From an uncultured Thiotrichales bacterium (GTDB taxonomy: Bacteria > Pseudomonadota > Gammaproteobacteria > UWMA-0217), in contig CAYTPO010000142.1 in the NCBI GenBank assembly GCA_964439815.1, positions 6,310-70,309 of the forward strand: a stretch of 64,000 nucleotides of DNA, read 5' to 3'. Each line of letters begins with the position of its first letter. Position 1 is the first letter of the stretch. Under the pieces are notes generated by a model, which worked only from the letters and a program-made list of their open reading frames with translations, made no database searches and was not told the DNA's origin. Made by a program: the position numbers and the translations under genes. Of this stretch, positions 9,331 through 53,784 are shown one piece after another.

Positions 9331-10998
<1,668 letters not shown>

Positions 10999-12288
10999 AT
11001 GAGCGACACCACCAGCGAACACTTTCTTCCGGTCAGCCGCTTTGCACTGCTGGCGAAGCTGCGCGAAGCAGGCCAGTGGGACGAGGATGAGCAGGCGTCC
11101 TGCGAGCAGCTTTACCAGTATCTGTCACTGTGGAAACACCAGACCTTTCGCCGCGAGCTGCAACTGCTGAAACGCAGCTTTCTGCCTTTCAGCCCCGACC
11201 GCGATACCCATGCCATTCTCGACTACTCTGCGGAGGAGTCGGCGACGTTGCAACAAACCCTGCTGTCGCACCTCCGAGGCTTGCTGCAACAGGCCAATTA
11301 CACTGCCATCACACTGGACGACCTGCAACAAATCTTCAACGTCGACTCGCCTTACGGACTGCAGCTGAAGGTGGATCTGAGTGAATTCGACGAAGTGCTG
11401 CTGTACGCCCGCGGCTCCCAACAGGTCACCAAGAGCATCCGCCACTGGAAAAGCCTGTTTCTGAAGAAGGTACCAATTGAAGTACCGGTATATCAGCGCC
11501 TATTCCTGCTGCTCAAGCTCAAGCCTGCGGAGACGCGCATCAGCGAGATCATGCGCAATGAAGCGGTCGGTGAGAAAAAGGCCAGGAAGAAACTGCGGCG
11601 CTACCGGGAAAACCTGCCGGACAATATCTCCGGTGATCACATCATCATCAAGCTCTTCAAGAACATCCCCCGGGCCGATCTGGAAATGCTGTTTCCCAAT
11701 ACCCAGGTCAAGCTGAAGACGTTCGACAAACTCAAGCTGGGTATCACCGCCGGTGGCGGTACCATCGGTAGCGTCACGGCCACCGCAACCAAACTGGCTG
11801 CAGCAGCCAACCCGACCACGGCAGCGGCCGCGCTGGCCGGTCTGGTGGGTGTGGTATTTCGCCAGGTCATGAAATTCTTTGGCCAGCGCACCAAATACAT
11901 GATGGTGTTGGCACAGAATCTCTATTTTCACAATCTGGCCAATAATCGTGCCGCGCTCACCCTGCTGACCGATCGCGCTGAAGAGGAGGCCTTCAAGAAC
12001 ACGCTACTGGCCTACTTCATTCTGCATCAGCAAGGGGCCGCCGCAGACAAGGCCGAGTTGCAGCAGCGCACCGAGAATTTCATTCGTGATGCCTTTGCAG
12101 TCAGCATACGATTCGATGTCGATTCAGCCATCACCAGCCTGCGGGATGACAAGCTGATCACCAATGACAAAAAACTGCAGGCCATCCCCCCCGCAGCCGC
12201 TTGTCAGCAGCTGGAAATGCACTGGCAGAACCATATCAAGACACTCATCCAGCCGGACAACAACGACGAAGATGCTCTGGAAGCATAA
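10999..12288 (+). CDS. Hypothetical membrane protein, possibly TMEM143/DUF3754-like. Its ATG immediately follows the ettA TAG.
   Basis: 429-aa ORF with a central hydrophobic Ala/Gly/Thr-rich segment (LGITAGGGTIGSVTATATKLAAAANPTTAAAALAGLVGVVF). The family assignment is tentative. Confidence 0.45.
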   Translation: MSDTTSEHFLPVSRFALLAKLREAGQWDEDEQASCEQLYQYLSLWKHQTFRRELQLLKRSFLPFSPDRDTHAILDYSAEESATLQQTLLSHLRGLLQQANYTAITLDDLQQIFNVDSPYGLQLKVDLSEFDEVLLYARGSQQVTKSIRHWKSLFLKKVPIEVPVYQRLFLLLKLKPAETRISEIMRNEAVGEKKARKKLRRYRENLPDNISGDHIIIKLFKNIPRADLEMLFPNTQVKLKTFDKLKLGITAGGGTIGSVTATATKLAAAANPTTAAAALAGLVGVVFRQVMKFFGQRTKYMMVLAQNLYFHNLANNRAALTLLTDRAEEEAFKNTLLAYFILHQQGAAADKAELQQRTENFIRDAFAVSIRFDVDSAITSLRDDKLITNDKKLQAIPPAAACQQLEMHWQNHIKTLIQPDNNDEDALEA

Positions 12289-12330
12289 CGCAGCAGCCGC
12301 CACCCACGAATAACCCAGAAGGAGACTCCC

Positions 12331-13800
12331 ATGGAAAACCGGATACTCATTGGCAAAGGCAACAAGAAGGTCTATCTGAATCCCCGTTACGCCAACCGGC
12401 ATGGGCTGATCGCCGGTGCCACCGGTACCGGCAAGACTGTCTCCCTGCAGGTATTGGCCGAGGGGTTTTCACGCATGGGTGTGCCGGTATTTCTCTCCGA
12501 CATCAAGGGCGACCTCACCGGCATCAGCCAGCCAGGCAGAGATCATCCCAAGATCACCGAGCGCATTGAAAAGATCGGCATCGATGATTTTGCGTTCGAG
12601 GGTTTCCCCACCATCCTCTGGGATCTGCTGGGAGAACAGGGCCACCCGGTTCGTACCACCATCTCGGACATGGGGCCGCTGCTACTGACCCGCCTGCTGG
12701 ATCTCAACGACACCCAGGAAGGCGTGCTGAATATTGCCTTCCGTCTCGCTGACGATGAGGGCCTGCTACTGCTGGATCTCGATGATCTGCGCACCACGCT
12801 GAGATACATTGGCGACAACCGCAAGGATTTCCAGAATGCCTACGGCAATATCAGCAGCGCCTCCATCGGTGCCATCCAGCGGCGCTTGCTGGTACTTGAG
12901 GAACAGGGGGCCGATCTCTTCTTCGGCGAACCGGCTCTGGATCTGTGGGACTTCATGCGCACTGGCGCCAGGGGTTATGGGAATATCAATATTCTGACTG
13001 CCGATAAACTGATGCTGTCTCCCCGGCTCTACGCCACCTTCCTGCTCTGGTTGTTATCGGAGCTGTTCGAAACATTGCCGGAAGTGGGCGACCTCGACAA
13101 GCCACGACTGGTGTTCTTTTTCGACGAGGCCCATCTGCTGTTCGATGATGCACCCGATGCCCTGATCGAAAAGATCGAGCAGGTAGTCAAGCTGATTCGC
13201 TCCAAGGGCGTCGGTATCTACTTTGTCACCCAGAACCCGCTGGATATCCCCGACTCGGTACTCGGCCAGCTTGGCAATCGCATCCAGCACGCATTGCGCG
13301 CCTTCACCCCCCGAGATCAGAAGGCGGTGCGCGCCGCAGCGCAGACCTTTCGCATCAATCCCGACCTGGATATCGAAGCCACCATCACACAGATGGGCGT
13401 CGGAGAAGCACTGGTCTCTATGCTGGAAGACAAGGGTACGCCGGGTATTGTCGAACGCACCCTGATTCGCCCCCCCTGCTCCCGCATCGGTCCGGCCAGC
13501 GAGAGCGAACGTGCCGAATTGCTGCGCAAGAGCCCGTTTGCCGGTCGCTACGATGAGGCAATCGACCGCATTTCCGCACATGAGAAGCTCACGGAGCGGG
13601 CAGAGATAGCAGCAAGAGAAGCCGAGGAAGCTGCACGTGCCATGGAAGAAGCCAAGAAAGAGGCACGTCTGGGCCGGCAGTCCAACCGCCGGCAAAGCGT
13701 GGGCGAAGCACTGGTCAAGAGCGTTGCACGTTCGATAGGCAGCCAGGTAGGACGAACCCTGATCCGTGGTATTCTCGGATCACTGTTCAAGGGACGTTGA
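12331..13800 (+). CDS. DUF853 (HerA-like C-terminal) P-loop NTPase, YjgR-like
   Basis: 489 aa. ANRHGLIAGATGTGKTVSLQVLAEGFSRMGVPVFLSDIKGDLTGISQPG aligns with the E. coli YjgR N-terminus. Confidence 0.75.
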   Translation: MENRILIGKGNKKVYLNPRYANRHGLIAGATGTGKTVSLQVLAEGFSRMGVPVFLSDIKGDLTGISQPGRDHPKITERIEKIGIDDFAFEGFPTILWDLLGEQGHPVRTTISDMGPLLLTRLLDLNDTQEGVLNIAFRLADDEGLLLLDLDDLRTTLRYIGDNRKDFQNAYGNISSASIGAIQRRLLVLEEQGADLFFGEPALDLWDFMRTGARGYGNINILTADKLMLSPRLYATFLLWLLSELFETLPEVGDLDKPRLVFFFDEAHLLFDDAPDALIEKIEQVVKLIRSKGVGIYFVTQNPLDIPDSVLGQLGNRIQHALRAFTPRDQKAVRAAAQTFRINPDLDIEATITQMGVGEALVSMLEDKGTPGIVERTLIRPPCSRIGPASESERAELLRKSPFAGRYDEAIDRISAHEKLTERAEIAAREAEEAARAMEEAKKEARLGRQSNRRQSVGEALVKSVARSIGSQVGRTLIRGILGSLFKGR

Positions 13801-27679: not shown

Positions 27680-27910
27680 TTTCAATACTCCATAGCGAAA
27701 CATTGCGCAGACAACTCAAGAGGTCGCAACAGTGCTTCAGGGGTTAGAACCTCCACATACCCCGACTGACAACCATCATTATTGCGACGGCACCCAGCCA
27801 GCCGTGTCGGTATGTGTGTGAATTTACCTGCCACCTTCAGGTGCAGGCGCGCGCTTTATACCACAAAGAAACAGCTACTCCAACAAAAAAACGGAGCCAG
27901 ACGAGTCCAC

Positions 27911-42375: not shown

Positions 42376-44349
42376 CTATATGGAATCAGGCCCCATGTGA
42401 CCCATACCTTCCGCCTCGGTCTCGGGGTTATAACTGATCAGGCATTCCCACTTCACCTTCTTCAGGCTCCACATACCGGTTTCCTTGTCGTAGGTGCTGT
42501 TGACGAAGCATTTCCAGTTGTCATCATCCACGGCCAGAAAGTCCGTGCGGTAGAAGTACCCCGGATAACGGGTCTCTTCACGGAACTGGATGTGCTTCAT
42601 GTGCGCCGTGGCGGCCAGGATACGGTGGTGATTCTCCCAGGCACGCAGCAGTTCATGCAGGTCTTTTGCTCGCGTTTTGGTGGCATCTTCACGCAACATT
42701 TCCAGTTTGCGCTCGGCGACTCCCAGCATCACCGCGTTGGTCTGGTACATGGTGGAGACGCCAGCCACATATTCATCCATGATTTTCTGCAGACGGAACT
42801 GCAGCATCCTGGGCGTAATGTAGTTGGGATTGACATCAATGGCTGTGGTGTAGTCCTTGTGCTCCAGAAAGGTTCTTACCGGAGCATAGATTTCTTCCAC
42901 GATCTCATTTACCGGACGATCCAGCTCGCGTTTCACGTCCTTGGTATCGATGACATATTTGACCATCGCCTTGGCGGCAATCCGTCCTTCGGTAAAGGAG
43001 CCCGAGCTGAATTTGTGGCCTGAGGCGCCGACACCATCACCAGCTGTAAACAGACCATTGACCGTAGTCATGCGGTTGTAACCCCAATGGTAATGATCCG
43101 GTGAGCCTGGCAGATCTTCGGGACCCGATACCCAGATCCCAGCGCAGCCTGCGTGGGAACCCAACAGGTACGGTTCGGTAGGCATCAGTTCGGATACGTC
43201 CTTGTCGGGCTCGATATTTTCCCCTGCCCATACACCGCACTGCCCGATGGTCATGTCGAGAAAGTCTTCCCATGCTTCGGCTTCAAGGTGCTTGATCTCC
43301 TTGGGCGTCATGTTCTTCGCCAGGTTGGCCATGGCAGTAGGCGTGTCTATGAAGATCGGGCCACGACCTTCCTTCAATTCCTTCATCACGAGGTGGTTGC
43401 GCAGGCAAGTCCCCATATGGAACCCTTTTGCATACTGCGAGGCATTGACGTTTTCAAGCTCCTTGTAGTTCTTTTCCTGGTAGTCTTCGCCAAAGGCGTT
43501 GGTGGATTTGGCCTTGAACAGAAGAAACCAGGCGCCTACGGGTCCGTAACCATCCTTGAAGCGGGCGGGCACGAAGCGGTTTTCCATCAGGGTCAGTTCT
43601 GCACCAGCTTCTGCGGCCATCGCGTAGGTGGAACCGGCGTTCCAGACGGGGTACCAGGCACGCCCCATACCTTCGCCCACCGAGCGGGGACGGAAGACAT
43701 TCACGGCACCGCCACAGACTAGCAGGCAGGCTTTGAATCTGTAGATGTAGACCTTGTCTTCACGTACCGAGAAGCCGGCGGCTCCAACTACGCGAGTAGG
43801 GTCATTCTTGTCATTGAGCAATTTGACGATAAAGACGCGTTCCTGGATGTTTTCTGCGCCCAGAGCCTTCCTTGCGGCTTCTGCAACGATCCATTTGTAG
43901 GATTCGCCATTGATCATGATCTGCCAGCGACCGGAGTTGACAGGCGTACCGCCCTCTTTCAGGCTCTTGTCTTCTTCGCCTTCCTTCTTCCAGATTGGAA
44001 GCCCCCATTTCTCGAAGTTGTGAACAGAATCATCGACATGACGGCCCACATCGTAAACCAGATCTTCACGCGTCACCCCCATGAGGTCGCCACGGACATA
44101 GCGCACATAATCCGCAGGATCATTCTTGCCCATATAGGTGTTGATGGCTGACAGACCCTGTGCAACTGCACCGGAACGATCCAGGGCAGCCTTGTCGACC
44201 AGTTTCACGCTGATGTCATGGCCGTCAGCCTTGGCGGCGTCTGTCCAGCGTTTGAGTTCGAAGGCACATCCGCAGGCAGCCATGCCGCCTCCAATCAGAA
44301 GGATGTCTACTTCTTCCTCAACAACATCTGGGTTGCCGAATCCGCTCAT
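42376..44349 (-). CDS. aprA: Adenylylsulfate (APS) reductase alpha subunit
   Basis: 657 aa. FAD-binding ILLIGGGMAACG, DRSGAVAQGLSAINTY, GLPIWKKEG, and a C-terminal HMKHIQFREETRYPGYFYRTDF matching AprA. Confidence 0.85.
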   Translation of the reverse strand: MSGFGNPDVVEEEVDILLIGGGMAACGCAFELKRWTDAAKADGHDISVKLVDKAALDRSGAVAQGLSAINTYMGKNDPADYVRYVRGDLMGVTREDLVYDVGRHVDDSVHNFEKWGLPIWKKEGEEDKSLKEGGTPVNSGRWQIMINGESYKWIVAEAARKALGAENIQERVFIVKLLNDKNDPTRVVGAAGFSVREDKVYIYRFKACLLVCGGAVNVFRPRSVGEGMGRAWYPVWNAGSTYAMAAEAGAELTLMENRFVPARFKDGYGPVGAWFLLFKAKSTNAFGEDYQEKNYKELENVNASQYAKGFHMGTCLRNHLVMKELKEGRGPIFIDTPTAMANLAKNMTPKEIKHLEAEAWEDFLDMTIGQCGVWAGENIEPDKDVSELMPTEPYLLGSHAGCAGIWVSGPEDLPGSPDHYHWGYNRMTTVNGLFTAGDGVGASGHKFSSGSFTEGRIAAKAMVKYVIDTKDVKRELDRPVNEIVEEIYAPVRTFLEHKDYTTAIDVNPNYITPRMLQFRLQKIMDEYVAGVSTMYQTNAVMLGVAERKLEMLREDATKTRAKDLHELLRAWENHHRILAATAHMKHIQFREETRYPGYFYRTDFLAVDDDNWKCFVNSTYDKETGMWSLKKVKWECLISYNPETEAEGMGHMGPDSI

Positions 44350-44401: not shown

Positions 44402-44866
44402 TCAGCCGGCACGAAATTGTGACATGTCACAACTGTGTGTGCCTTTGGTGAACAGGGTCGAGTGGTCAGCGATTTCCTCCAGGACTGCATCGTTCTCGCC
44501 ACCATAGGGATCAGCTGAACCTTCTGGCGTGGTACGAATGGGAAATTTGAATCGCTTCATGTTGCCATTGCGGAATTTAATGGTCCAGATGATGGAGTCT
44601 GTGCCTCGCAGAGGCTGGACACTGCCCCCCATCGGTACCACATCGGCATAGGAGCGACATTCAATGGCATTCTGTGGACAGATCTTGACACAGCTGTAGC
44701 ACTCCCAGCACTGTTCCGGTTCCTGGTTGAACGCTTTCATTGCATGGCCAGTCTCGGAGCCATCCGAATCGAGTTTCATCAGGTCATGCGGGCAGATGTA
44801 CACGCACGCCACTCTATCCTGCCCCTTGCAACCATCACATTTATCGGTACGTACGAACGTAGGCAT
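44402..44866 (-). CDS. aprB: Adenylylsulfate reductase beta subunit (iron-sulfur)
   Basis: 154 aa. Two [4Fe-4S] ferredoxin-like Cys clusters (CDGCKGQDRVACVYICP and CWECYSCVKICP), plus the AprB-specific C-terminal tail. Confidence 0.85.
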   Translation of the reverse strand: MPTFVRTDKCDGCKGQDRVACVYICPHDLMKLDSDGSETGHAMKAFNQEPEQCWECYSCVKICPQNAIECRSYADVVPMGGSVQPLRGTDSIIWTIKFRNGNMKRFKFPIRTTPEGSADPYGGENDAVLEEIADHSTLFTKGTHSCDMSQFRAG

Positions 44867-45176: not shown

Positions 45177-45230
45177 CCGCTATGGAATCGAGAGCTTGTG
45201 CCAGTCGCCTCATTCAAACCCCGGACTCAG
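45177..45230. repeat. Copy 3 of the roughly 54-nt repeated element (ccgctatggaatcgagagcttgtgccagtcgcctcattcaaaccccggactcag), upstream of aprB
   Basis: Aligns with 25562-25620 and 26749-26802. Confidence 0.7.
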
Positions 45231-45249
45231 AAAGCACAGAGCAAAAACG

Positions 45250-45278
45250 AAAAAAGGCCAGCAAAGCTGGCCTTTTTT
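45250..45278. terminator. Rho-independent terminator (A6-ggccagc-aaa-gctggcc-T6), 3' of the GlyGly-CTERM protein gene
   Basis: Stem at 45256-45262 / 45266-45272 with flanking A-run and T-run. Confidence 0.8.
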
Positions 45279-45292
45279 CAATCCTCATCAAA

Positions 45293-46807
45293 TCAGTGGC
45301 GTCGACGACGCAATCCGAGGAAGCCGAATCCAGCGAGCATCAGCCCCATGGCACCACCACCGCCACCACCACTGGAAGAAGTATCATCCGTTGTTGGCGT
45401 GGTAGGTGTAGTTGGCGTAGTCGGGGTAGTAGGTGCCGTAGGTGTGGTTGGTGTCGTGGGGGTGGTTGGCGTAGTCGGGGTGGTTGTATCCTTACCGAGA
45501 TCAGCCGGTGCCACACATTTGCGCAAAGCGATACCAGACAGCGCTACAAGATTGTAGTTATCTTCCTTGATGTTGCTGTTTCTGACCTCAAGAGTCGCCT
45601 TGTTGCCGGGCTCGGGATCAACCTGCAGGCTGATCTGATGCCATTGGTCCGTTGTCTTGTCTTCAACCAGAGTAAACACGGGTGACGTGGCAGAGCCGGC
45701 CACCAATGTAATTTCAGCATCATCTCCACCAGTTCCAATAACTTCCGATACCGGAGCAGGATTGGAAACCCACACCTCAAACTGGTATTTGGCTTTGGGA
45801 TCAAGCCCGGAAACCGTTTGCATCCAGATTCCGGGACCACCTGACACACCAGCACCGGATGCCAGGAGGTAGCCCGGCGCCTTGTCCAACGCAGGAATAT
45901 CACCCGCCTTCTTGGCGCCTGGGAACGGATATTGGAAATGAGACAGGTCTGTAATCGTGATATTACTGGCCGGCGCAACACCAGGTGCCGCAGCAATCTC
46001 GGTCACCAGCGCAACCTCCTTGTAATTGGCAAAGGTGTTGTCTCCCACGAATTTGTAGTCACTCTTGAAGGATTTGGCGATGAGGCTATTGGGAGGTAGC
46101 GGGGTAGTCTTGCCATCGGCACCTTTAGGCAGAGCACCATGTGGTGTTGAGAAATCACCATTAACCACCTTATTGGTGGTATCCGGTACTGTCCCTTGAG
46201 GACAAACCGATGCATGGGCAGATGGGGCTGATGGCAATATGAAGGTTGCGGAATCCGTCTTGCCGTTCATGTCTGCAGTCGAGGTAAAGGGCCCCTTGTT
46301 TGCAGTACCCACATCAACGGTGACGTCATAACGAACAATAATGGAAGAATAGGGAGACAGCTTCTCCTTGTCTGCGAAAATCTTGTCGCCCTTGTCAGCT
46401 CCGGTTGCTACCCCGGCAAAACCAGGATTCAACGTCAGGGTTGCATTCTGAAAATTGGCCTTGGGTTTTTTTGTGCTGTTCTCATCCTGTACCACCTCAT
46501 CCAGAATGGTCAGATTCTCGACCTTTACCGAATTGCGGATCGCTGCAGGAAAACTGTTCTTGATGGCGTCTGTAATCTGTACTTCCACAGCTGCAGGAGG
46601 CGTTCCCGTCGCGGGAATGGTGTCGTCATTAATGATGCGTTGCTGTATAGAGAAAGTATATTTCGTTCCGACGGCTGTAATTGGTCCCTTCACCTCACGC
46701 AGAAACTGCAAGGCAGCATCGACATCCATACTGAATGTAAGGCTGGAAACAGCCAGAACACCTGCTGCCAATGGAGTGAGTGAGAAAAACTTGCGACTTT
46801 TCGACAT
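45293..46807 (-). CDS. Secreted protein with a Thr-Pro repeat linker and a C-terminal GlyGly-CTERM-like sorting signal (candidate rhombosortase substrate). The real start is MSKSRKFF.
   Basis: Signal peptide. C-terminus reads (TTP)n...SSSGGGGGGAMGLMLAGFGFLGLRRRRH, a Gly run followed by a hydrophobic helix and an Arg cluster. Confidence 0.6.
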   Translation of the reverse strand: MSKSRKFFSLTPLAAGVLAVSSLTFSMDVDAALQFLREVKGPITAVGTKYTFSIQQRIINDDTIPATGTPPAAVEVQITDAIKNSFPAAIRNSVKVENLTILDEVVQDENSTKKPKANFQNATLTLNPGFAGVATGADKGDKIFADKEKLSPYSSIIVRYDVTVDVGTANKGPFTSTADMNGKTDSATFILPSAPSAHASVCPQGTVPDTTNKVVNGDFSTPHGALPKGADGKTTPLPPNSLIAKSFKSDYKFVGDNTFANYKEVALVTEIAAAPGVAPASNITITDLSHFQYPFPGAKKAGDIPALDKAPGYLLASGAGVSGGPGIWMQTVSGLDPKAKYQFEVWVSNPAPVSEVIGTGGDDAEITLVAGSATSPVFTLVEDKTTDQWHQISLQVDPEPGNKATLEVRNSNIKEDNYNLVALSGIALRKCVAPADLGKDTTTPTTPTTPTTPTTPTAPTTPTTPTTPTTPTTDDTSSSGGGGGGAMGLMLAGFGFLGLRRRRH

Positions 46808-47172
46808 GGAATTACCTTTAGTACAGAAATGTTTATAGTGTGGTATCAATCTGGAGAATCCGTGGCAGCGTACCCAATATAAAGCCACCTTCAGACCACG
46901 GGTTCATGGCGCGACCGGGTTTTGAACTCCAGATCCAGCAAGCCCTGCTGAATTCTTCATGCTGCCCTGATATATCGGGCATTTCCCTGATCGTAGCACG
47001 GTGCGACAACCCAAAACTGTGACGCAGTTGCAAGCACACCTGACTATGGCGTCTGCGACAGAAAAAAAGAGAAGCTTTACTTCAATCCAATTGATTATAG
47101 TGCAAACCGCCCACTGTCGTAACTTCACATAGGAAGACAGAGCTACCATACATAACATTCATTTCCCAGTAC

Positions 47173-48162
47173 TCATGCAAGCAACTCCCTGACGATCCCG
47201 GGCCCCCGATAGACAAAACCGGAATACACCTGCACCAGGTCCGCACCACTTTCGAGCTTCAACTGCATATCCTGTGAAGAGAATACACCTCCAGCCGCAA
47301 TCAATGCAGTCTCCCCTCTCAGATGCTGTCGAAACATGGACAGCACCTGCGTCGACTTGTCCAGAAGCGGTTTCCCGCTAAGCCCACCAGCCTCTTCCCC
47401 ATGCACCATTCCCTGCACACCGTCGCGAGTTGCAGTTGTATTGGTCGCGATAACGCCGTCGATGTCCAGTTGGTTGAAGGTGTCGGTCATAACCTCGATT
47501 TCACCTTCATCGAGATCGGGCGCTACCTTGACGACCAGGGGAACATACCTGGATGTTTCCTCGTGCAACTGCATTTGCCGTGCCTTCAATGGCTCCAGTA
47601 AAGCACGCAACATTTCGCTTTTCTGCAGGTCTCGCAAACCGGGGGTATTGGGGGAAGAGATGTTGACAGTGATGTAGTCGGCCAACGGGTAGGACTTGTT
47701 CAAGCCAATGAGGTAGTCATCAACGGCCCTTTCGACAGGCGTATCGAAATTCTTGCCAATATTGATACCCAGAATCCCTTGGTAGCGACGCCTGGCAGCA
47801 TTCTCGAGGAGGTGCTCGATCCCCTTGTTATTGAATCCCATGCGGTTGATGATCGCTTGTGCCTCAGGCAATCGAAACAACCGCGGCCGGGGATTACCGG
47901 GCTGAGGACGCGGCGTAACCGTCCCTATTTCGACGAAACCGAAACCCAATCCACCCAACGCATCGATGTAGTCACCATTCTTGTCCAGCCCCGCAGCCAG
48001 ACCGAGAGGATTGGCAAACTCCAACCCCATCACTCTCCTCGGGCCGCCATGCCAGGCCAGCGGTTTCTTGCGCAATGGAGACAATTTGAGTGCGGCGAGC
48101 GCCACGTGATGTGCCGTCTCTGGAGGTAACGCGAATAACAGGGAACGAATCAGGGCATACAT
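47173..48162 (-). CDS. pyrD: Dihydroorotate dehydrogenase (quinone), class 2
   Basis: 329 aa. N-terminal membrane-association helix and GFNNKG / IGKN motifs. Confidence 0.9.
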   Translation of the reverse strand: MYALIRSLLFALPPETAHHVALAALKLSPLRKKPLAWHGGPRRVMGLEFANPLGLAAGLDKNGDYIDALGGLGFGFVEIGTVTPRPQPGNPRPRLFRLPEAQAIINRMGFNNKGIEHLLENAARRRYQGILGINIGKNFDTPVERAVDDYLIGLNKSYPLADYITVNISSPNTPGLRDLQKSEMLRALLEPLKARQMQLHEETSRYVPLVVKVAPDLDEGEIEVMTDTFNQLDIDGVIATNTTATRDGVQGMVHGEEAGGLSGKPLLDKSTQVLSMFRQHLRGETALIAAGGVFSSQDMQLKLESGADLVQVYSGFVYRGPGIVRELLA

Positions 48163-48225
48163 GGACCACGCCCCCCGCTGCAGACGCGCAGTACCTGCCA
48201 GTCTCTGGATCCGGAGCTGGCGCGG

Positions 48226-48645
48226 CTACTTGACAATTCGCAGAGCCGGTCTTCCGCCATCCTTGCTCTCGCCTGTCGAATCCGGAGAGCTGTCGGGGTC
48301 GGTTGGTGTATCACCATCTTCAGGTGAGAAAACCATTCCCTTGCCATTCTCGCGGGCATAGATTGCCACTGCACAATTGACTGGCACAACGATATCCATC
48401 GGCTTGCCGCCAAAGCGACCGGAGAAAGTGATCTCTTCATTGCCAATGGTCAGCCCCCGCACAGCGGTAGGATTGACATTCAGGACGATCTTGCCGTCAT
48501 CGACATATTCCCTGGGTACGATGACACCCTCTTCGTCGGCAAATACCAGCATATGTGGCGTCAATCCATTATCAACGATCCACTCGTACATCGCCCGTAA
48601 CAGGTACGGACGACTACTGGTCATTTTGGTTTCCTTGTCAGACAA
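48226..48645 (-). CDS. sspB: Stringent starvation protein B (ClpXP specificity-enhancing adaptor)
   Basis: RPYLLRAMYEWIVDNGLTPHM N-terminus and a C-terminal GGRPALRIVK ClpX-binding tail. Confidence 0.85.
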   Translation of the reverse strand: MSDKETKMTSSRPYLLRAMYEWIVDNGLTPHMLVFADEEGVIVPREYVDDGKIVLNVNPTAVRGLTIGNEEITFSGRFGGKPMDIVVPVNCAVAIYARENGKGMVFSPEDGDTPTDPDSSPDSTGESKDGGRPALRIVK

Positions 48646-48657
48646 ATCGAACGTCGC

Positions 48658-49305
48658 CTAGTAACCAGGCTTGCCTACGCCGGGGCGCATCTCGGCCTCA
48701 ACCTGGGTCAAGCTGGCAATGAAACTCTCGCGCTGAAAGATCCGGTCCATATAGTCGATGACTGACTGCGCAGATGCTGGCAGTTCGATGCCCAGATACT
48801 TCAGCCGCCACAAAATGGGAGCAATGGTGCAATCGACCAGGCTGAACTCGTCACTGAGAAAGAAAGGCCTTGCCGCAAAGACTTCTGCCGATGCAATCAG
48901 CATTTCCTTCAACGCCTTGCGCGCTCTGGCCTGCTTCTTTTCGCCACCATACTGCATGTCATCCAACAAGCAGTACCAGTCTCTTTCAACACGATACAGC
49001 GCCAGTCGCGAGCGGGCCCGGGAAACCGGGTCAACCGGCATCAGCGGCGGATGGGGGAATCGCTCGTCAAGATACTCCATGATGATCCGTGGTTCGTACA
49101 ACACCAGATCACGTTCAACCAGTGTAGGTACGGTGTTGTAGGGATTCAGATCAACCAGATCATCCGGCTTGTTATCAGGATCGATATCAATGATATCCAC
49201 CGTGATGTCTTTCTCCGCCAGCACAATGCGGGCGCGATGACACTGCGCACAATTCTGTGCCGAAAACAGCGTCATGACGGAGCGTCGGTTGGCAGCTAAT
49301 GCCAT
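48658..49305 (-). CDS. sspA: Stringent starvation protein A (GST-like)
   Basis: MALAANRRSVMTLFS closely matches the E. coli SspA N-terminus MAVAANKRSVMTLFSG. GST fold. Confidence 0.9.
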   Translation of the reverse strand: MALAANRRSVMTLFSAQNCAQCHRARIVLAEKDITVDIIDIDPDNKPDDLVDLNPYNTVPTLVERDLVLYEPRIIMEYLDERFPHPPLMPVDPVSRARSRLALYRVERDWYCLLDDMQYGGEKKQARARKALKEMLIASAEVFAARPFFLSDEFSLVDCTIAPILWRLKYLGIELPASAQSVIDYMDRIFQRESFIASLTQVEAEMRPGVGKPGY

Positions 49306-49399
49306 ATTTTCTTCCTCTAATCAGCCAACGGGATACAATCGTGTATACATTCGACAGCAAAGCTTGCCTGCCGATTCGCATCTTGTTCCATGATATGTA

Positions 49400-50134
49400 T
49401 CAGTGAACGTCTTTCCAATATTCTTTCTTGAGGAAATAGGCCGAGACGAAAAACACGAACAGAAACAGCATCACGAAAATCCCGATCTTCTGCCGGCTAT
49501 CCCTGGCGGGCTCAGCCATATAGGTCAGGAAATTGGTGATATCGCGAACGATCTGATCATATTGAACGGGCGGCACGGAACCCGGGGAAACCATTGACAG
49601 CTCGGCAGCGCCATGCTCGTCGCTCTCCTTCTTTACCTGCCATCCCTGCAGCTGCCATAGTACATGGGGCATGCCGACGTTGGGGAAAACGACATTGTTT
49701 ACACCCAGCGGACGCGACGGATCCAGATAGAAGCTGCGCAGATAGGTGTAAATCCAATCGGCACCACGCGAACGCGCGACGACCGACAAATCGGGCGGAG
49801 CCTTGCCGAAAGCTTCGCTGGCATCGATCTCCTTCATCGCCGCCTTCATGTAGACACCGACTTTGTCAGGCTCACCGCGCTCATCACGCGAAAAGATCAC
49901 TTCGGATTTCAGGACATCGTCAGGTATGCCCAGGTCTGCACCCACCCGGCTGTAGCGGCTCAAGGCCGTCGAGTGACAACCGGAACAGTAGTTGTTGAAA
50001 TACTTGAAGCCCCGTTGCAGGGAAGCCTTGTTGGACAGATCCACGTCGGCCTTTTCCAGATGAGCGCCCCCTGATGCCAACACGGAAACAGGCGAGGCCA
50101 GTAGCAGAAAACTTAAAATGATTAGCCTTTTCAT
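49400..50134 (-). CDS. petC: Cytochrome c1 of the ubiquinol-cytochrome c reductase complex
   Basis: Signal peptide, CSGCHS heme-binding motif and a C-terminal TM anchor. Confidence 0.9.
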   Translation of the reverse strand: MKRLIILSFLLLASPVSVLASGGAHLEKADVDLSNKASLQRGFKYFNNYCSGCHSTALSRYSRVGADLGIPDDVLKSEVIFSRDERGEPDKVGVYMKAAMKEIDASEAFGKAPPDLSVVARSRGADWIYTYLRSFYLDPSRPLGVNNVVFPNVGMPHVLWQLQGWQVKKESDEHGAAELSMVSPGSVPPVQYDQIVRDITNFLTYMAEPARDSRQKIGIFVMLFLFVFFVSAYFLKKEYWKDVH

Positions 50135-51513
50135 TATCCAGTCACCCTTTGAGGAACCTCTTTCTCGGCATCCCAGTTAGTAAAAATCGGAAACAGCAGC
50201 GTGACAACCAGATAGATGCCTGGAATAGCCAACGCAGGCCAGACCATGGAAGGATTCAGCGTATCCACCCTGATCAGGTCATAGGCAACGATCAGTCCCA
50301 TCACGACCGCGAAGGTCAACAGGCTGGTCAGTGCCGAACGTTTCTTGCTGCTGTACCACATCACGATGAAGAACGAGAAGTAGACCTCGGTCAGCCTGAC
50401 ACCCATTTCGGAGTTGAACTCGGTGACCGGCTCGATTCCCAGATACCCCAACCAAACAAAGGCGGCCACGAAGTAGAGAATGCTGAACGTATGGAGCTTG
50501 CTGCGATACCGCCAGGACTTGATCGGATTGCGATCGATCCACGGCAGGAAGAACAGGATCACGACCGCAGCCCCCATGGCCAGCACACCCAGAAAAGGAT
50601 CGGGTACGGCACGAAGCACGGTATAGAAAGGCGTGAAGTACCATACCGGCGCGATATGCTCTGGTGTCTGCATGGGATTGGCGGGAACGAAGTTGGCATG
50701 TTCCAGGAAGTAGCCTCCGCCTTCCGGCACAAAAAACAGTACCGCAAAGAAGAAGATCAGGAACACGGCCACACCCAGAATATCCTTGACCGTGTAATAG
50801 GGATGAAAAGCAATACCGTCGAGTGGCACACCGTTTTCATCCTTCGTCTTCTTGATCTCGACTCCATCCGGGTTGTTGGAACCCACCTGATGCAGCGCCA
50901 GAATGTGTAGCACGATCAAACCGACCAGCGCCAATGGAACCGCAATGACGTGCAGCGCAAAAAAGCGATTCAATGTTGCATCCGAGACGACGAAGTCACC
51001 CCGCAGCCATACCGCCAGATCGGGACCAATGCCGGGAATGGCACCAAACAGATTGACGATGACCTGCGCACCCCAATAGGACATCTGTCCCCAGGGCAAC
51101 AGGTAACCCATGAACGCTTCAGCCATCAGCGCCAGATAGATGAACATGCCGAAGATCCAGATCAGCTCCCGCGGGGTCTTGTAGGAGCCGTATATCAGGC
51201 CGCGAAACATGTGCAGATAGACAACGACAAAGAATGCCGAGGCACCGGTCGAATGCATGTAGCGGATAAACCAGCCACCGGGAACTTCCCGCATGATGTA
51301 TTCGACAGAGGCGAACGCCATCTGTGCATCCGGCTTGTAATGCATGGTCAACAGGATGCCGGAAACGATCTGGATAACCAGCACCAGCATTGCCAGCGAG
51401 CCGAAAAAGTACCAGAAGTTGAAATTCTTTGGTGTGTAGTACTTTGAGAGATGATCCTCGAACGGCTTGATGATGGGTAGCCGTTGATCCACCCAGGTAA
51501 GAACTTTATTCAT
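50134..51513 (-). CDS. petB: Cytochrome b of the bc1 complex. The real start is at MNKVLTWVDQRLP.
   Basis: Colinear with Rhodobacter cytochrome b (GSLAMLVLVIQIVSGILLTMHY, PWGQMSYWGA). Confidence 0.9.
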   Translation of the reverse strand: MNKVLTWVDQRLPIIKPFEDHLSKYYTPKNFNFWYFFGSLAMLVLVIQIVSGILLTMHYKPDAQMAFASVEYIMREVPGGWFIRYMHSTGASAFFVVVYLHMFRGLIYGSYKTPRELIWIFGMFIYLALMAEAFMGYLLPWGQMSYWGAQVIVNLFGAIPGIGPDLAVWLRGDFVVSDATLNRFFALHVIAVPLALVGLIVLHILALHQVGSNNPDGVEIKKTKDENGVPLDGIAFHPYYTVKDILGVAVFLIFFFAVLFFVPEGGGYFLEHANFVPANPMQTPEHIAPVWYFTPFYTVLRAVPDPFLGVLAMGAAVVILFFLPWIDRNPIKSWRYRSKLHTFSILYFVAAFVWLGYLGIEPVTEFNSEMGVRLTEVYFSFFIVMWYSSKKRSALTSLLTFAVVMGLIVAYDLIRVDTLNPSMVWPALAIPGIYLVVTLLFPIFTNWDAEKEVPQRVTG

Positions 51514-51517
51514 TAGG

Positions 51518-52153
51518 TTAGGCCTCTTTTTTATCCTCTCCAATCAGGACTTTTGTTTCACTCAGGTAGTAATGAGGAGGTACAACAAGATTGGTAGGTG
51601 CCGGGACGTTCTGGAACACCCGGCCAGCCAGGTCGAATTTCGAACCGTGGCAGGGGCAATACCAGCCTCCCTTCCAGTTTTCACCCAGGTCAGCGGGTGC
51701 CACTTCGGGGCGATAGGTGGGTGAGCAGCCCAGATGAGTACAGATTCCGACCAGAATCAGGAACTCGGGCTTGATCGAACGATACTTGTTATGGGCATAT
51801 TCAGGTTGCTGGGATTCGACCTGACTGTCGGGATCGCGCAGACGGGCATCATTCTCGGGCAGCGCCTTGAGCATCTCCTCGGTACGGCGTACCAACCACA
51901 CGGGTTTGCCACGCCACTCGACACGCACAAGCTGACCCGGCTGGATCTTGCCCAGCTCAGCCTCCACCGGTGCACCTGCCGCCTTGGCCCGTTCACTTGG
52001 CGCCATTGCACTCAGGAATGGGACAGCAACAGCTGCAGCCCCCGCAGCACCAATCACGCTGGTGGTGGCAACCAGAAACCTGCGCTTTTTCAAATCGACG
52101 CGTTCGGTCGATCCAGCTTGATCTGTCTGTTCAATGTCTGCAGCAGTTGACAT
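51518..52153 (-). CDS. petA: Ubiquinol-cytochrome c reductase Rieske iron-sulfur subunit
   Basis: Tat-like KRRFLV signal anchor and CTHLGC...CPCHGS Rieske boxes. Confidence 0.9.
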   Translation of the reverse strand: MSTAADIEQTDQAGSTERVDLKKRRFLVATTSVIGAAGAAAVAVPFLSAMAPSERAKAAGAPVEAELGKIQPGQLVRVEWRGKPVWLVRRTEEMLKALPENDARLRDPDSQVESQQPEYAHNKYRSIKPEFLILVGICTHLGCSPTYRPEVAPADLGENWKGGWYCPCHGSKFDLAGRVFQNVPAPTNLVVPPHYYLSETKVLIGEDKKEA

Positions 52154-52546
52154 CCAATCTCTCCCAATAACTAATCTATGTGAGCAAATAAGTGTATAAA
52201 TATCGTGACGTTACAATAGTTTCGACGCGTAGGCACCACCCCACGAAACCTGAACTCCCAGGACAGCATCATATTCAAATTCACGACATCGGCGCCGATG
52301 GAAGCAATGTCACATCTCACAGCGGCGCGGAATTGTCTCGCAATCATTTAGTTTCGTCAAACGCAATTCCGGTCAAAAAACAACCAACTATGCCTTTTTA
52401 TTCTTTTTAATCAATAAGATACAACAAAATGACAAAAATCAATCGGGTTTCATTTTAGTCGATTTCAACTTGCCCGATCCCCCTGCCCGATGTTAGCCTC
52501 GACACATACCGTTTATCAGAATATCAATACCGCTCAGGGGGCTACG

Positions 52547-53017
52547 GTGAAAATAATCATAATACTTGTCACAGCGCTGTTTGTTTCGATGACTGCCTCG
52601 GCAGACAACTTCACCACCGCCATACCACTGATCGAAAAGGGTACTTCGACCTTCTATGTCTCTGCCTCCATCGGCAACAGCCAGTTCGATCTGCTGGTCG
52701 ACACCGGCGCAGGCTATACAGCCTTGAACAAATCACTGATTGATGAGCTGAAAGCCAGCGGACACGCCAGGCAAACCGGTATCGTCGAAGGCATCATGGC
52801 TAACGGCGCCATCTATGAGCTGCCCGTATACGAAATAACCACCCTGAATATCGGTGGCTGCATCATCAGGGATTTCGAAGCAGCAGAAATGCCTGCCGGA
52901 ACCCGTAACCTGCTCGGACTGAGCGCCCTCAGACAAACGGCCCCCTTCGCCTTTTCACTGGAACCTGCAGAACTGAGGCTGAGCAACTGTGGCGCCAATC
53001 TTGCCCAGGCCAACTGA
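52547..53017 (+). CDS. Retropepsin-like (clan AA) aspartic protease with a signal peptide. The probable start is GTG at 52547, preceded by GGGGG.
   Basis: LLVDTGAGYTAL active-site DTG motif, about 155 aa mature. Confidence 0.6.
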   Translation: MKIIIILVTALFVSMTASADNFTTAIPLIEKGTSTFYVSASIGNSQFDLLVDTGAGYTALNKSLIDELKASGHARQTGIVEGIMANGAIYELPVYEITTLNIGGCIIRDFEAAEMPAGTRNLLGLSALRQTAPFAFSLEPAELRLSNCGANLAQAN

Positions 53018-53028
53018 CCGACAGGGGA

Positions 53029-53784
53029 TCAGACCGGGTTATCAATATCCACAAACTCATGGCACAGTCCGAATCGCTCCGCAAGATGTTCACCCAATGC
53101 CATGACGCCATAACGCTCGGTGGTATGATGGCCCGCTGCAAAGTAGTGAATCCCCAGCTCACGCGCCAGGTGGACAGTCTGTTCCGAGATTTCCCCACTG
53201 ATATAGGCATCAGCACCTGATGCCGCGGCCTGCTCGATATGGCCTTGCGCCGCACCGGTGCACCACGCAACCCGCTCGACAGGGAAGTCGCCCGCGACAA
53301 TGCTCAGCGGTGCCCTGCCAAGCACCTGTTCCAGACGTCGCGCCAACATGATTGCCGGCATGGCCTCGTCGAGCACACCAACAGAGCCTATCCCCTCACT
53401 GTTCAGCGGTTCGGCCCCACTGATTCGCAACCGACGTCCAAGCACAGCGTTGTTCCCCAGCTCGGCATGAGCGTCCAGCGGCAGATGGTAGGCAACAAGA
53501 CTGATATCGTTTTCCAGCAGGGACTTGATGCGCCGCCGCTTGATCCCCACGATCGGCTGCGTCTCCCCCTTCCAGAAATAGCCATGATGCACCAGCAGCA
53601 CATCAGCCTGCAGCATGACAGCCTGATCGATGAGTGCCTGGCAGGCAGTCACACCGGAAACGATCCTTTGCACCTCACTGCGCCCCTCGACCTGCAGCCC
53701 ATTCGGGCAATAATCGGAGAAGGAAGCACTGCTCAACAGTTGATCGGAGTATTGAATCAAGGACTTTAGCGGGATCATGGGCAT
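53029..53784 (-). CDS. Nif3-family dinuclear metal centre protein (YbgI/YqfO-like)
   Basis: 251 aa. The N-terminus and the VLLVHHGYFW / AYHLPLDAH / VAWCTGAAQG / AYISGEISE segments match the Nif3 family. Confidence 0.8.
   Translation of the reverse strand: MPMIPLKSLIQYSDQLLSSASFSDYCPNGLQVEGRSEVQRIVSGVTACQALIDQAVMLQADVLLVHHGYFWKGETQPIVGIKRRRIKSLLENDISLVAYHLPLDAHAELGNNAVLGRRLRISGAEPLNSEGIGSVGVLDEAMPAIMLARRLEQVLGRAPLSIVAGDFPVERVAWCTGAAQGHIEQAAASGADAYISGEISEQTVHLARELGIHYFAAGHHTTERYGVMALGEHLAERFGLCHEFVDIDNPV

Follow-up and report, generated by a model that had tools for sequence, protein, structure and literature searches.

A probable divergent, sub-threshold GlyGly-CTERM-type tail on a predicted surface protein of an uncultured Thiotrichales bacterium

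The subject of this report is a previously unannotated gene on the minus strand of a DNA stretch of 64,000 nucleotides from an uncultured Thiotrichales bacterium (contig CAYTPO010000142.1 of GenBank assembly GCA_964439815.1, positions 6,310 to 70,309), which is called the window below. The gene product is probably a secreted, cell-surface-tethered and sugar-binding-like protein. We lean, with slightly better than even confidence, to the view that its C-terminal tail belongs to the GlyGly-CTERM class, is processed by rhombosortase and serves the display of the protein on the cell envelope. The tail is most likely a poly-Gly flavour of this class, in which GG-A-hydrophobic-G-hydrophobic takes the place of the typical GG-S-hydrophobic-G-hydrophobic, and it lies below the threshold of the corresponding hidden Markov model (HMM).

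The poly-Gly tail and its relatives

The C-terminus consists of a Thr/Pro repeat, SSSGGGGGG, the hydrophobic segment AMGLMLAGFGFLGL and RRRRH; this layout had been given in an earlier sequence-only reading of the window and was confirmed by translation. The last 28 residues contain the three parts of a GlyGly-CTERM tail (a Gly/Ser signature, a hydrophobic segment and a basic cluster), and residues 432-504 are free of Cys, as is expected of this class. Only seven homologues came out of a search through 5.8 billion clustered proteins, and all of them end in GGGGG-A-[LMF]-G-hydrophobic-RRR despite a wholly different composition of the linker. The tail has a mean pairwise identity of 0.61, as against 0.40 and 0.45 for the globular domains, and the pair Gly482-Gly483 does not vary among 22 family members with 23-57% identity to the query. 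Since the homologues conserve the tail ending and this invariant Gly-Gly pair, the tail is more than a product of chance. The relatives come from metagenome-assembled genomes of uncultured Thiotrichales and Gammaproteobacteria, and a metagenome scan with the close alignment found four loci and nothing new.

More distant relatives were collected by comparing a profile of the globular part with 1.84 billion representatives, which gave 193 proteins at E <= 0.001. The tail of P0012 (profile E 1.2e-36), SGGGSMGWLLLTGLLLTGRRRRVR, obtains 18.2 bits with the GlyGly-CTERM model TIGR03501 and passes its cutoff of 15.5, being the sole pass among the distant homologues; the scores of P0019 (GGSGGGSIGFGF...), P0043 and P0022 are 14.7, 13.8 and 13.6 bits, respectively. 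These four tails have a core of G-G-(S/A)-hydrophobic-G-hydrophobic in common with the G-G-A-M-G-L of the window protein. The alignment of P0015 with NF038111, a model of a rhombosortase-dependent M36 peptidase, places its C-terminal region at the extreme end of the model. Tandem paralogues, each with its own Gly-rich tail, are found at 10001-13044 of the related locus L003 (the same as 9500-12543 of L008). At another locus (L012, 4704-9202) a poly-Gly-tailed paralogue adjoins the SGGGS-tailed P0019, and at three further loci (L015-L017) a GGGGGAVG-tailed paralogue adjoins the GGGTLHW-tailed P0022. This coexistence on sister genes in one genome suggests that one machinery serves both tail flavours.

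Passengers homologous to that of the window protein are also found with other sorting signals, LPXTG and PEP-CTERM. Three of them (P0030, P0031 and P0052) were seen by eye to end in LPETG, LPSTG and LPQTG, respectively, followed by a transmembrane (TM) segment and basic residues, and P0143 ends in a PEP-CTERM signal (19.9 bits, cutoff 16). Other proteins with the beta-jelly-roll domain described below have ends resembling, by eye, the C-terminal domains of type IX secretion systems (T9SS), or an OmpA domain detected by Pfam (P0027). Haft and Varghese took tail swapping as a hallmark of real sorting signals (PMC3237569), and the presence of other tails on the same passenger is therefore as expected of a genuine sorting signal. 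As a separate observation, a conserved ...NFGFIRFRVRI[DN] motif forms the end of one group of proteins among P0020-P0154.

A possible course of maturation can be drawn by analogy with VesB of Vibrio cholerae (PMC6219818, PMC13393428). After Sec export, the tail would serve as a transient inner-membrane anchor, with RRRR on the cytoplasmic side, and a rhombosortase-class intramembrane serine protease would cut at the Gly run. The new C-terminal Gly would then be amidated to a glycerophosphoethanolamine-containing lipid, and the protein would be transferred to the cell surface. On the extended TTP spacer, a stalk of Ig-like fold and a head resembling a lectin may stand clear of the membrane, and the head could there bind a glycan, either the exopolysaccharide of the cell itself or a glycan of a host or a substrate.

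Rhombosortase processing and its alternatives

Several results weigh against the view that the tail is a rhombosortase substrate. Formal membership of TIGR03501 fails, since the whole protein obtains 8.2 bits and the tail alone 9.5 bits, and of the nine close relatives and paralogues that were scanned, none exceeds 12 bits where a score was reported at all. The HMM evidence is also non-specific, because generic tail models equal or beat TIGR03501. The MYXO-CTERM model TIGR03901 gives 17.3 bits for the whole protein and 24.8 bits for the tail alone (cutoff 20), TIGR03382, another MYXO-CTERM model, gives 20 bits for the isolated tail (cutoff 15.85), and the LPXTG anchor model TIGR01167 gives 16.5 bits for the whole protein (cutoff 15.9). 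The scores with TIGR03901 and TIGR01167 stem from the TM-plus-Arg part, which is common to all these models. The many-to-one pairing of a sorting signal was not seen within the DNA examined, where one protein family alone has the tail: the gene is the sole open reading frame (ORF) of the window with such a tail, and the extra tail copies in related loci are on tandem paralogues of the same family. A database search with a padded profile of the tail only returned three short fragments. For the passenger, the possible sugar binding is proposed from fold similarity at only 9-19% identity to the structural hits.

The sequence-only reading had assigned the tail to GlyGly-CTERM rather than to PEP-CTERM. 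Its rejection of PEP-CTERM holds, as the tail has no Pro-Glu-Pro motif and obtains 11.6 bits with TIGR02595 (cutoff 16), and its choice of GlyGly-CTERM is supported in part, by the tripartite form and the lack of Cys, with TIGR03501 remaining below its cutoff.

The absence of a recognisable processing enzyme from the DNA examined is another point on the negative side. Rhomboid-like genes were sought among ORFs of 150-330 residues with at least four hydrophobic segments and in precomputed Pfam lists of the gene contexts, covering the 64-kb window and approximately 250 kb in about 20 related loci, which fall into about twelve distinct contexts. None of this DNA yielded a rhomboid-like gene, and PF01694 was missing from the gene lists. 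The multi-pass membrane ORFs of the window resemble, by eye, RseP, CdsA, a PqiA pair, cytochrome b and MlaE. In genomes with a sole target, the protease is usually adjacent to it, which was the case in 16 of 21 genomes (Haft and Varghese, PMC3237569). The lack of adjacency fits a genome with multiple targets, such as those with the tandem paralogues in L003, L012 and L015, and fits equally a genome without rhombosortase. The same authors list Beggiatoa sp. PS among the carriers of GlyGly-CTERM and Thioalkalivibrio among those of rhombosortase (PMC3237569), so that the GlyGly-CTERM/rhombosortase system does occur in sulfur-oxidising Gammaproteobacteria; our literature search on rhombosortase in sulfur oxidisers found nothing relevant.

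With no sorting enzyme near the gene in about a dozen distinct contexts, with TIGR03501 below its cutoff and with only generic TM-plus-RRR matches among the above-threshold models, the tail could be an unprocessed C-terminal membrane anchor. The hydrophobic segment would then be a stop-transfer helix held by a cytoplasmic Arg cluster, and the two beta domains would extend on the TTP spacer into the periplasm, with neither a dedicated protease nor surface display. We regard this as unlikely for reasons that lie in the tail itself as well as in the passenger. The hydrophobic stretch has 14 residues, of which 4 are Gly, and is preceded by 6 Gly, so that it would form a poor stable helix and looks more like the substrate of an intramembrane protease. 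A plain anchor would not need an invariant Gly-Gly pair and a conserved G-G-A-x-G motif across 22 relatives, and in homologues this position is taken by true GlyGly-CTERM, PEP-CTERM or LPXTG signals. Carbohydrate-binding module (CBM)-like and adhesin-type domains are, in addition, typical of surface proteins and not of periplasmic ones.

Another explanation takes the tail as a distinct poly-Gly-CTERM signal, specific to Thiotrichales-like lineages and served by an enzyme other than rhombosortase, namely an unrecognised intramembrane protease or transpeptidase. The steady 8-12 bits of the close clade on TIGR03501, never reaching the cutoff, would suit this explanation, as would the clade's own conserved core GGGGG-A-[LMF]-G, and new sorting classes with new enzymes are still emerging, myxosortase being an example (PMC11980579). 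It is nevertheless improbable, because the tails grade continuously into canonical GlyGly-CTERM within one protein family and both flavours are present on tandem paralogues of the same genome. The published definition of GlyGly-CTERM already covers runs of at least five glycines (PMC3237569), and none of the contexts examined links the gene to a candidate for another enzyme. We give similarly little credence to a wider proposal, in which the GGGGG-A-x-G tail is a separate class with a dedicated intramembrane enzyme and the jelly roll is a new surface-lectin family for attachment of uncultured sulfur oxidisers.

To take the NCBIfam hits at face value, as signs of a sortase (LPXTG) or myxosortase (MYXO-CTERM) substrate, is hardly tenable: TIGR01167 with the whole protein and TIGR03901 and TIGR03382 with the tail alone do exceed their cutoffs, but through the common TM-plus-Arg part, the host is a gammaproteobacterium, and both readings are refuted by missing defining residues, since TTDDTSSS stands where the motif should be with no LPXTG-like motif before the hydrophobic segment, and the invariant Cys that defines MYXO-CTERM (PMC3237569, PMC11980579) is missing from the tail.

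Protein anatomy and gene neighbourhood

The coordinates of the features are listed in Table 1. The signal peptide is made up of the basic MSKSRK, the hydrophobic FFSLTPLAAGVLAVSSLTF and SMDVDA, followed by A, and is without a lipobox Cys; mean pairwise identity of this region in the family is 0.62. The sequence-only reading had found no recognised domain in the N-terminal 450 residues. At the level of sequence models this stands, because Pfam and NCBIfam gave no domain in the first 440 residues, including no match to a CBM family of Pfam. At the level of fold it does not, since an AlphaFold2 model of moderate quality, built on an eight-sequence alignment (mean pLDDT 65, domain-core blocks mostly 74-93), contains two beta domains, an immunoglobulin (Ig)-like sandwich and a CBM-like jelly roll.

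The link of the N-terminal sandwich to DUF11 is transitive only. Pfam gave no direct match of DUF11 (PF01345) over this domain, and positions approximately 84-198 of the family profile match repeated stretches in giant DUF11/DUF7507-rich proteins; the fold is a generic adhesin-type sandwich. The jelly roll superposes on known CBMs, begins with an NGDF motif and has long low-confidence insertions in the model at residues 271-310 and 353-360. It is enclosed between C202 and C431, the sole cysteines of the protein, which probably form a stapling disulfide once it is exported. Both are invariant in the 22-member family alignment, together with N216, F219, W328, Y341, D387 and W389. Profile positions approximately 200-428 match a module without a Pfam model, which is present in many multidomain surface proteins (about 190 cluster representatives).

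In two related loci, P0022 and its tandem paralogue adjoin genes for a TPR protein, a BcsA/BcsB-type cellulose synthase fusion of 1486 residues and a GH8 enzyme (10001-21641 of L015 and 5891-17531 of L016). These cellulose-synthase neighbours give a weak hint that such CBM-like surface proteins may interact with self-made exopolysaccharide.

The Thr/Pro linker of 33 residues reads T(TTP)5 TAP (TTP)4 TT and is followed by DDT at residues 474-476. A pure Thr/Pro linker is found in the window protein only, the linkers of close relatives being rich in Gly, Ser, Asp and Thr and 46-57 residues in length. The 9-nt DNA tandem array announced in the sequence-only reading exists, though in imperfect form: Tandem Repeats Finder reported it at 45393-45486 with 10.4 copies of period 9 (70% matches, score 48); longer periods raise the score, to 83 for period 18 (77% matches) and to 104 for period 36 (74% matches). 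Its units use scrambled synonymous codons. Variation of the array in length by slippage is a weak idea, given units that match each other at only 70-77%. Outside the window, copies of the gene are found only in two loci with an identical protein (L001 and L002), whose DNA is 100% identical to that of the window, and the nearest relative beyond them is 58% identical.

Table 1. Features of the gene and its product in the window (approximate residue limits are marked with a tilde)
Feature	Coordinates	Strand	Basis
Complete coding sequence, 504 residues and TGA stop, 1515 nt	45293..46807	-	ORF list and translation
Sec-type signal peptide, residues 1-~31	46715..46807	-	Read from translation; putative cleavage site
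N-terminal Ig-like beta-sandwich, residues ~32-195	46223..46714	-	Fold of adhesin stalks/pilins; distantly DUF11-like
CBM-like beta-jelly-roll, residues 202-431	45515..46204	-	Fold similarity
Thr/Pro linker, residues 441-473, ten TTP units (one TAP)	45389..45487	-	Tandem Repeats Finder, codon listing
Tripartite tail, residues 477-504	45296..45379	-	Translation, family conservation, HMM scores
SSS (477-479) and GGGGGG (480-485)	45353-45379	-	Translation
Short Gly-rich hydrophobic segment AMGLMLAGFGFLGL, residues 486-499	45311-45352	-	Translation
RRRRH, residues 500-504	45296-45310	-	Translation
Intrinsic-terminator-like hairpin, 15-pair stem, 7 GC pairs, then T run	45248..45280	-	Terminator scan

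The ATG at 46807 was taken as the start codon. Since it has AAAGG, resembling a ribosome-binding site, approximately 7 nt upstream and matches the starts of the homologues P0002 and P0003, the GTG at 46888, with which the longer version in the ORF list begins, is unlikely. The gene lies between pyrD (47173-48162) and aprB (44402-44866). The terminator hairpin begins 13 nt beyond the stop codon, and the gene is therefore a transcription unit of its own (monocistronic), outside the adjoining aprBA operon. This operon, directly downstream, consists of aprB and aprA (42376-44349), both on the minus strand and coding for adenylylsulfate reductase, and is followed by a CxxCxxCC-family gene. The aprBA pair indicates a host of the sulfur-oxidising or sulfate-reducing type. 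We rejected a functional link of the gene to aprBA, because a strong terminator lies between them and relatives keep the pyrD side while the other flank differs.

The gene order petABC (Rieske/cytochrome b/cytochrome c1)-sspA-sspB-pyrD, followed by the present gene, is kept in two pairs of related loci (L004/L005 and L010/L011), and positions 47173-53300 of the window have approximately 76-79% DNA identity to 3500-9630 of L010/L011. The far-side flank is occupied by aprBA in the window, by dctPQM in L004 and by an EndoU-like gene and greB in L010. Because this flank is different in every lineage, the gene sits at a synteny breakpoint. Horizontal acquisition was considered and rejected, as there is no compositional signal (G+C content of 0.50-0.53 in the gene and 0.51-0.58 in its neighbours). 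Two plus-strand ORFs at 45182-45685 (167 residues) and 45198-45557 (119 residues, with VVG repeats) were rejected as antisense shadows of the TTP and poly-Gly repeats. Elsewhere in the window, the t44 small RNA family (RF00127) has a full-length match at 27743-27838 on the minus strand, with 66.4 bits (gathering score 44); this is the sole Rfam hit of the window, and no tRNA genes were found in the 64 kb.

Significance and comparison with known systems

Most likely, the product of the gene is a surface protein whose CBM-like passenger is unannotated and whose tail is of a divergent GlyGly-CTERM type below the model threshold, a result that leaves current understanding unchallenged. It is useful mainly for better HMM coverage and domain catalogues, and would be no surprise to a specialist. 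An entire clade of poly-Gly tails escapes the curated GlyGly-CTERM model, and PGAP-style annotation could mislabel the protein as an LPXTG anchor on the narrow excess over the TIGR01167 cutoff (16.5 vs 15.9), even though it has no LPXTG. The passenger module, which is without a Pfam model and widespread (193 representatives at E <= 0.001), is a good candidate for the definition of a new domain family, and is combined with several anchoring ends, i.e., GlyGly-like, LPXTG-like, PEP-CTERM, T9SS-like and OmpA. The predicted fold points to a surface protein that may bind glycans, in a lineage of uncultured, sulfur-oxidising Gammaproteobacteria.

Among known systems, VesB-type GlyGly-CTERM proteins (TIGR03501/TIGR03902) resemble the window protein in having a signal peptide, a folded passenger, an unstructured linker, a Gly/Ser motif without Cys, a short hydrophobic segment and a terminal Arg cluster. 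The host is proteobacterial in both cases, and homologues of the present passenger pass or nearly pass TIGR03501. Differences lie in the six consecutive Gly followed by Ala instead of SGGS, in the unusually Gly-rich hydrophobic segment and in the score of 8.2 bits against the cutoff of 15.5. Further differences are that no rhombosortase or type II secretion system gene was seen in the DNA examined, and that the passenger is a non-enzymatic pair of Ig-like and CBM-like domains, not a protease or nuclease.

In the rhombosortase-related families NF038115 (SVAGG family) and NF038111 (M36 peptidase), it is the C-terminal end of the models to which the tail aligns, together with the preceding region in the case of P0015. 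The scores are 11-23 bits against cutoffs of 150 and 1700, respectively, and the tail region alone is common, so that the protein is not a member of either. Substrates of myxosortase are alike in their tripartite tail with a Gly-rich motif ahead of the TM segment, and the tail alone exceeds the MYXO-CTERM cutoffs, whereas the invariant Cys is missing here and the host is not a myxobacterium.

Archaeal PGF-CTERM S-layer glycoproteins (TIGR04216, NF041431) have a Thr/Pro-rich spacer right before the sorting tail, as does the window protein, which has weak hits there. These hits are compositional (9-17 bits against cutoffs of 400-600), and the present protein has no PGF motif and a bacterial host. 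For the jelly-roll module, the comparison set is given by CBM4, CBM22, CBM61 and CBM16, which are galactose-binding-like jelly rolls. The module of the window protein differs from them in its low identity (9-19%), in having no Pfam hit and in standing in a protein to which no glycoside hydrolase is attached.

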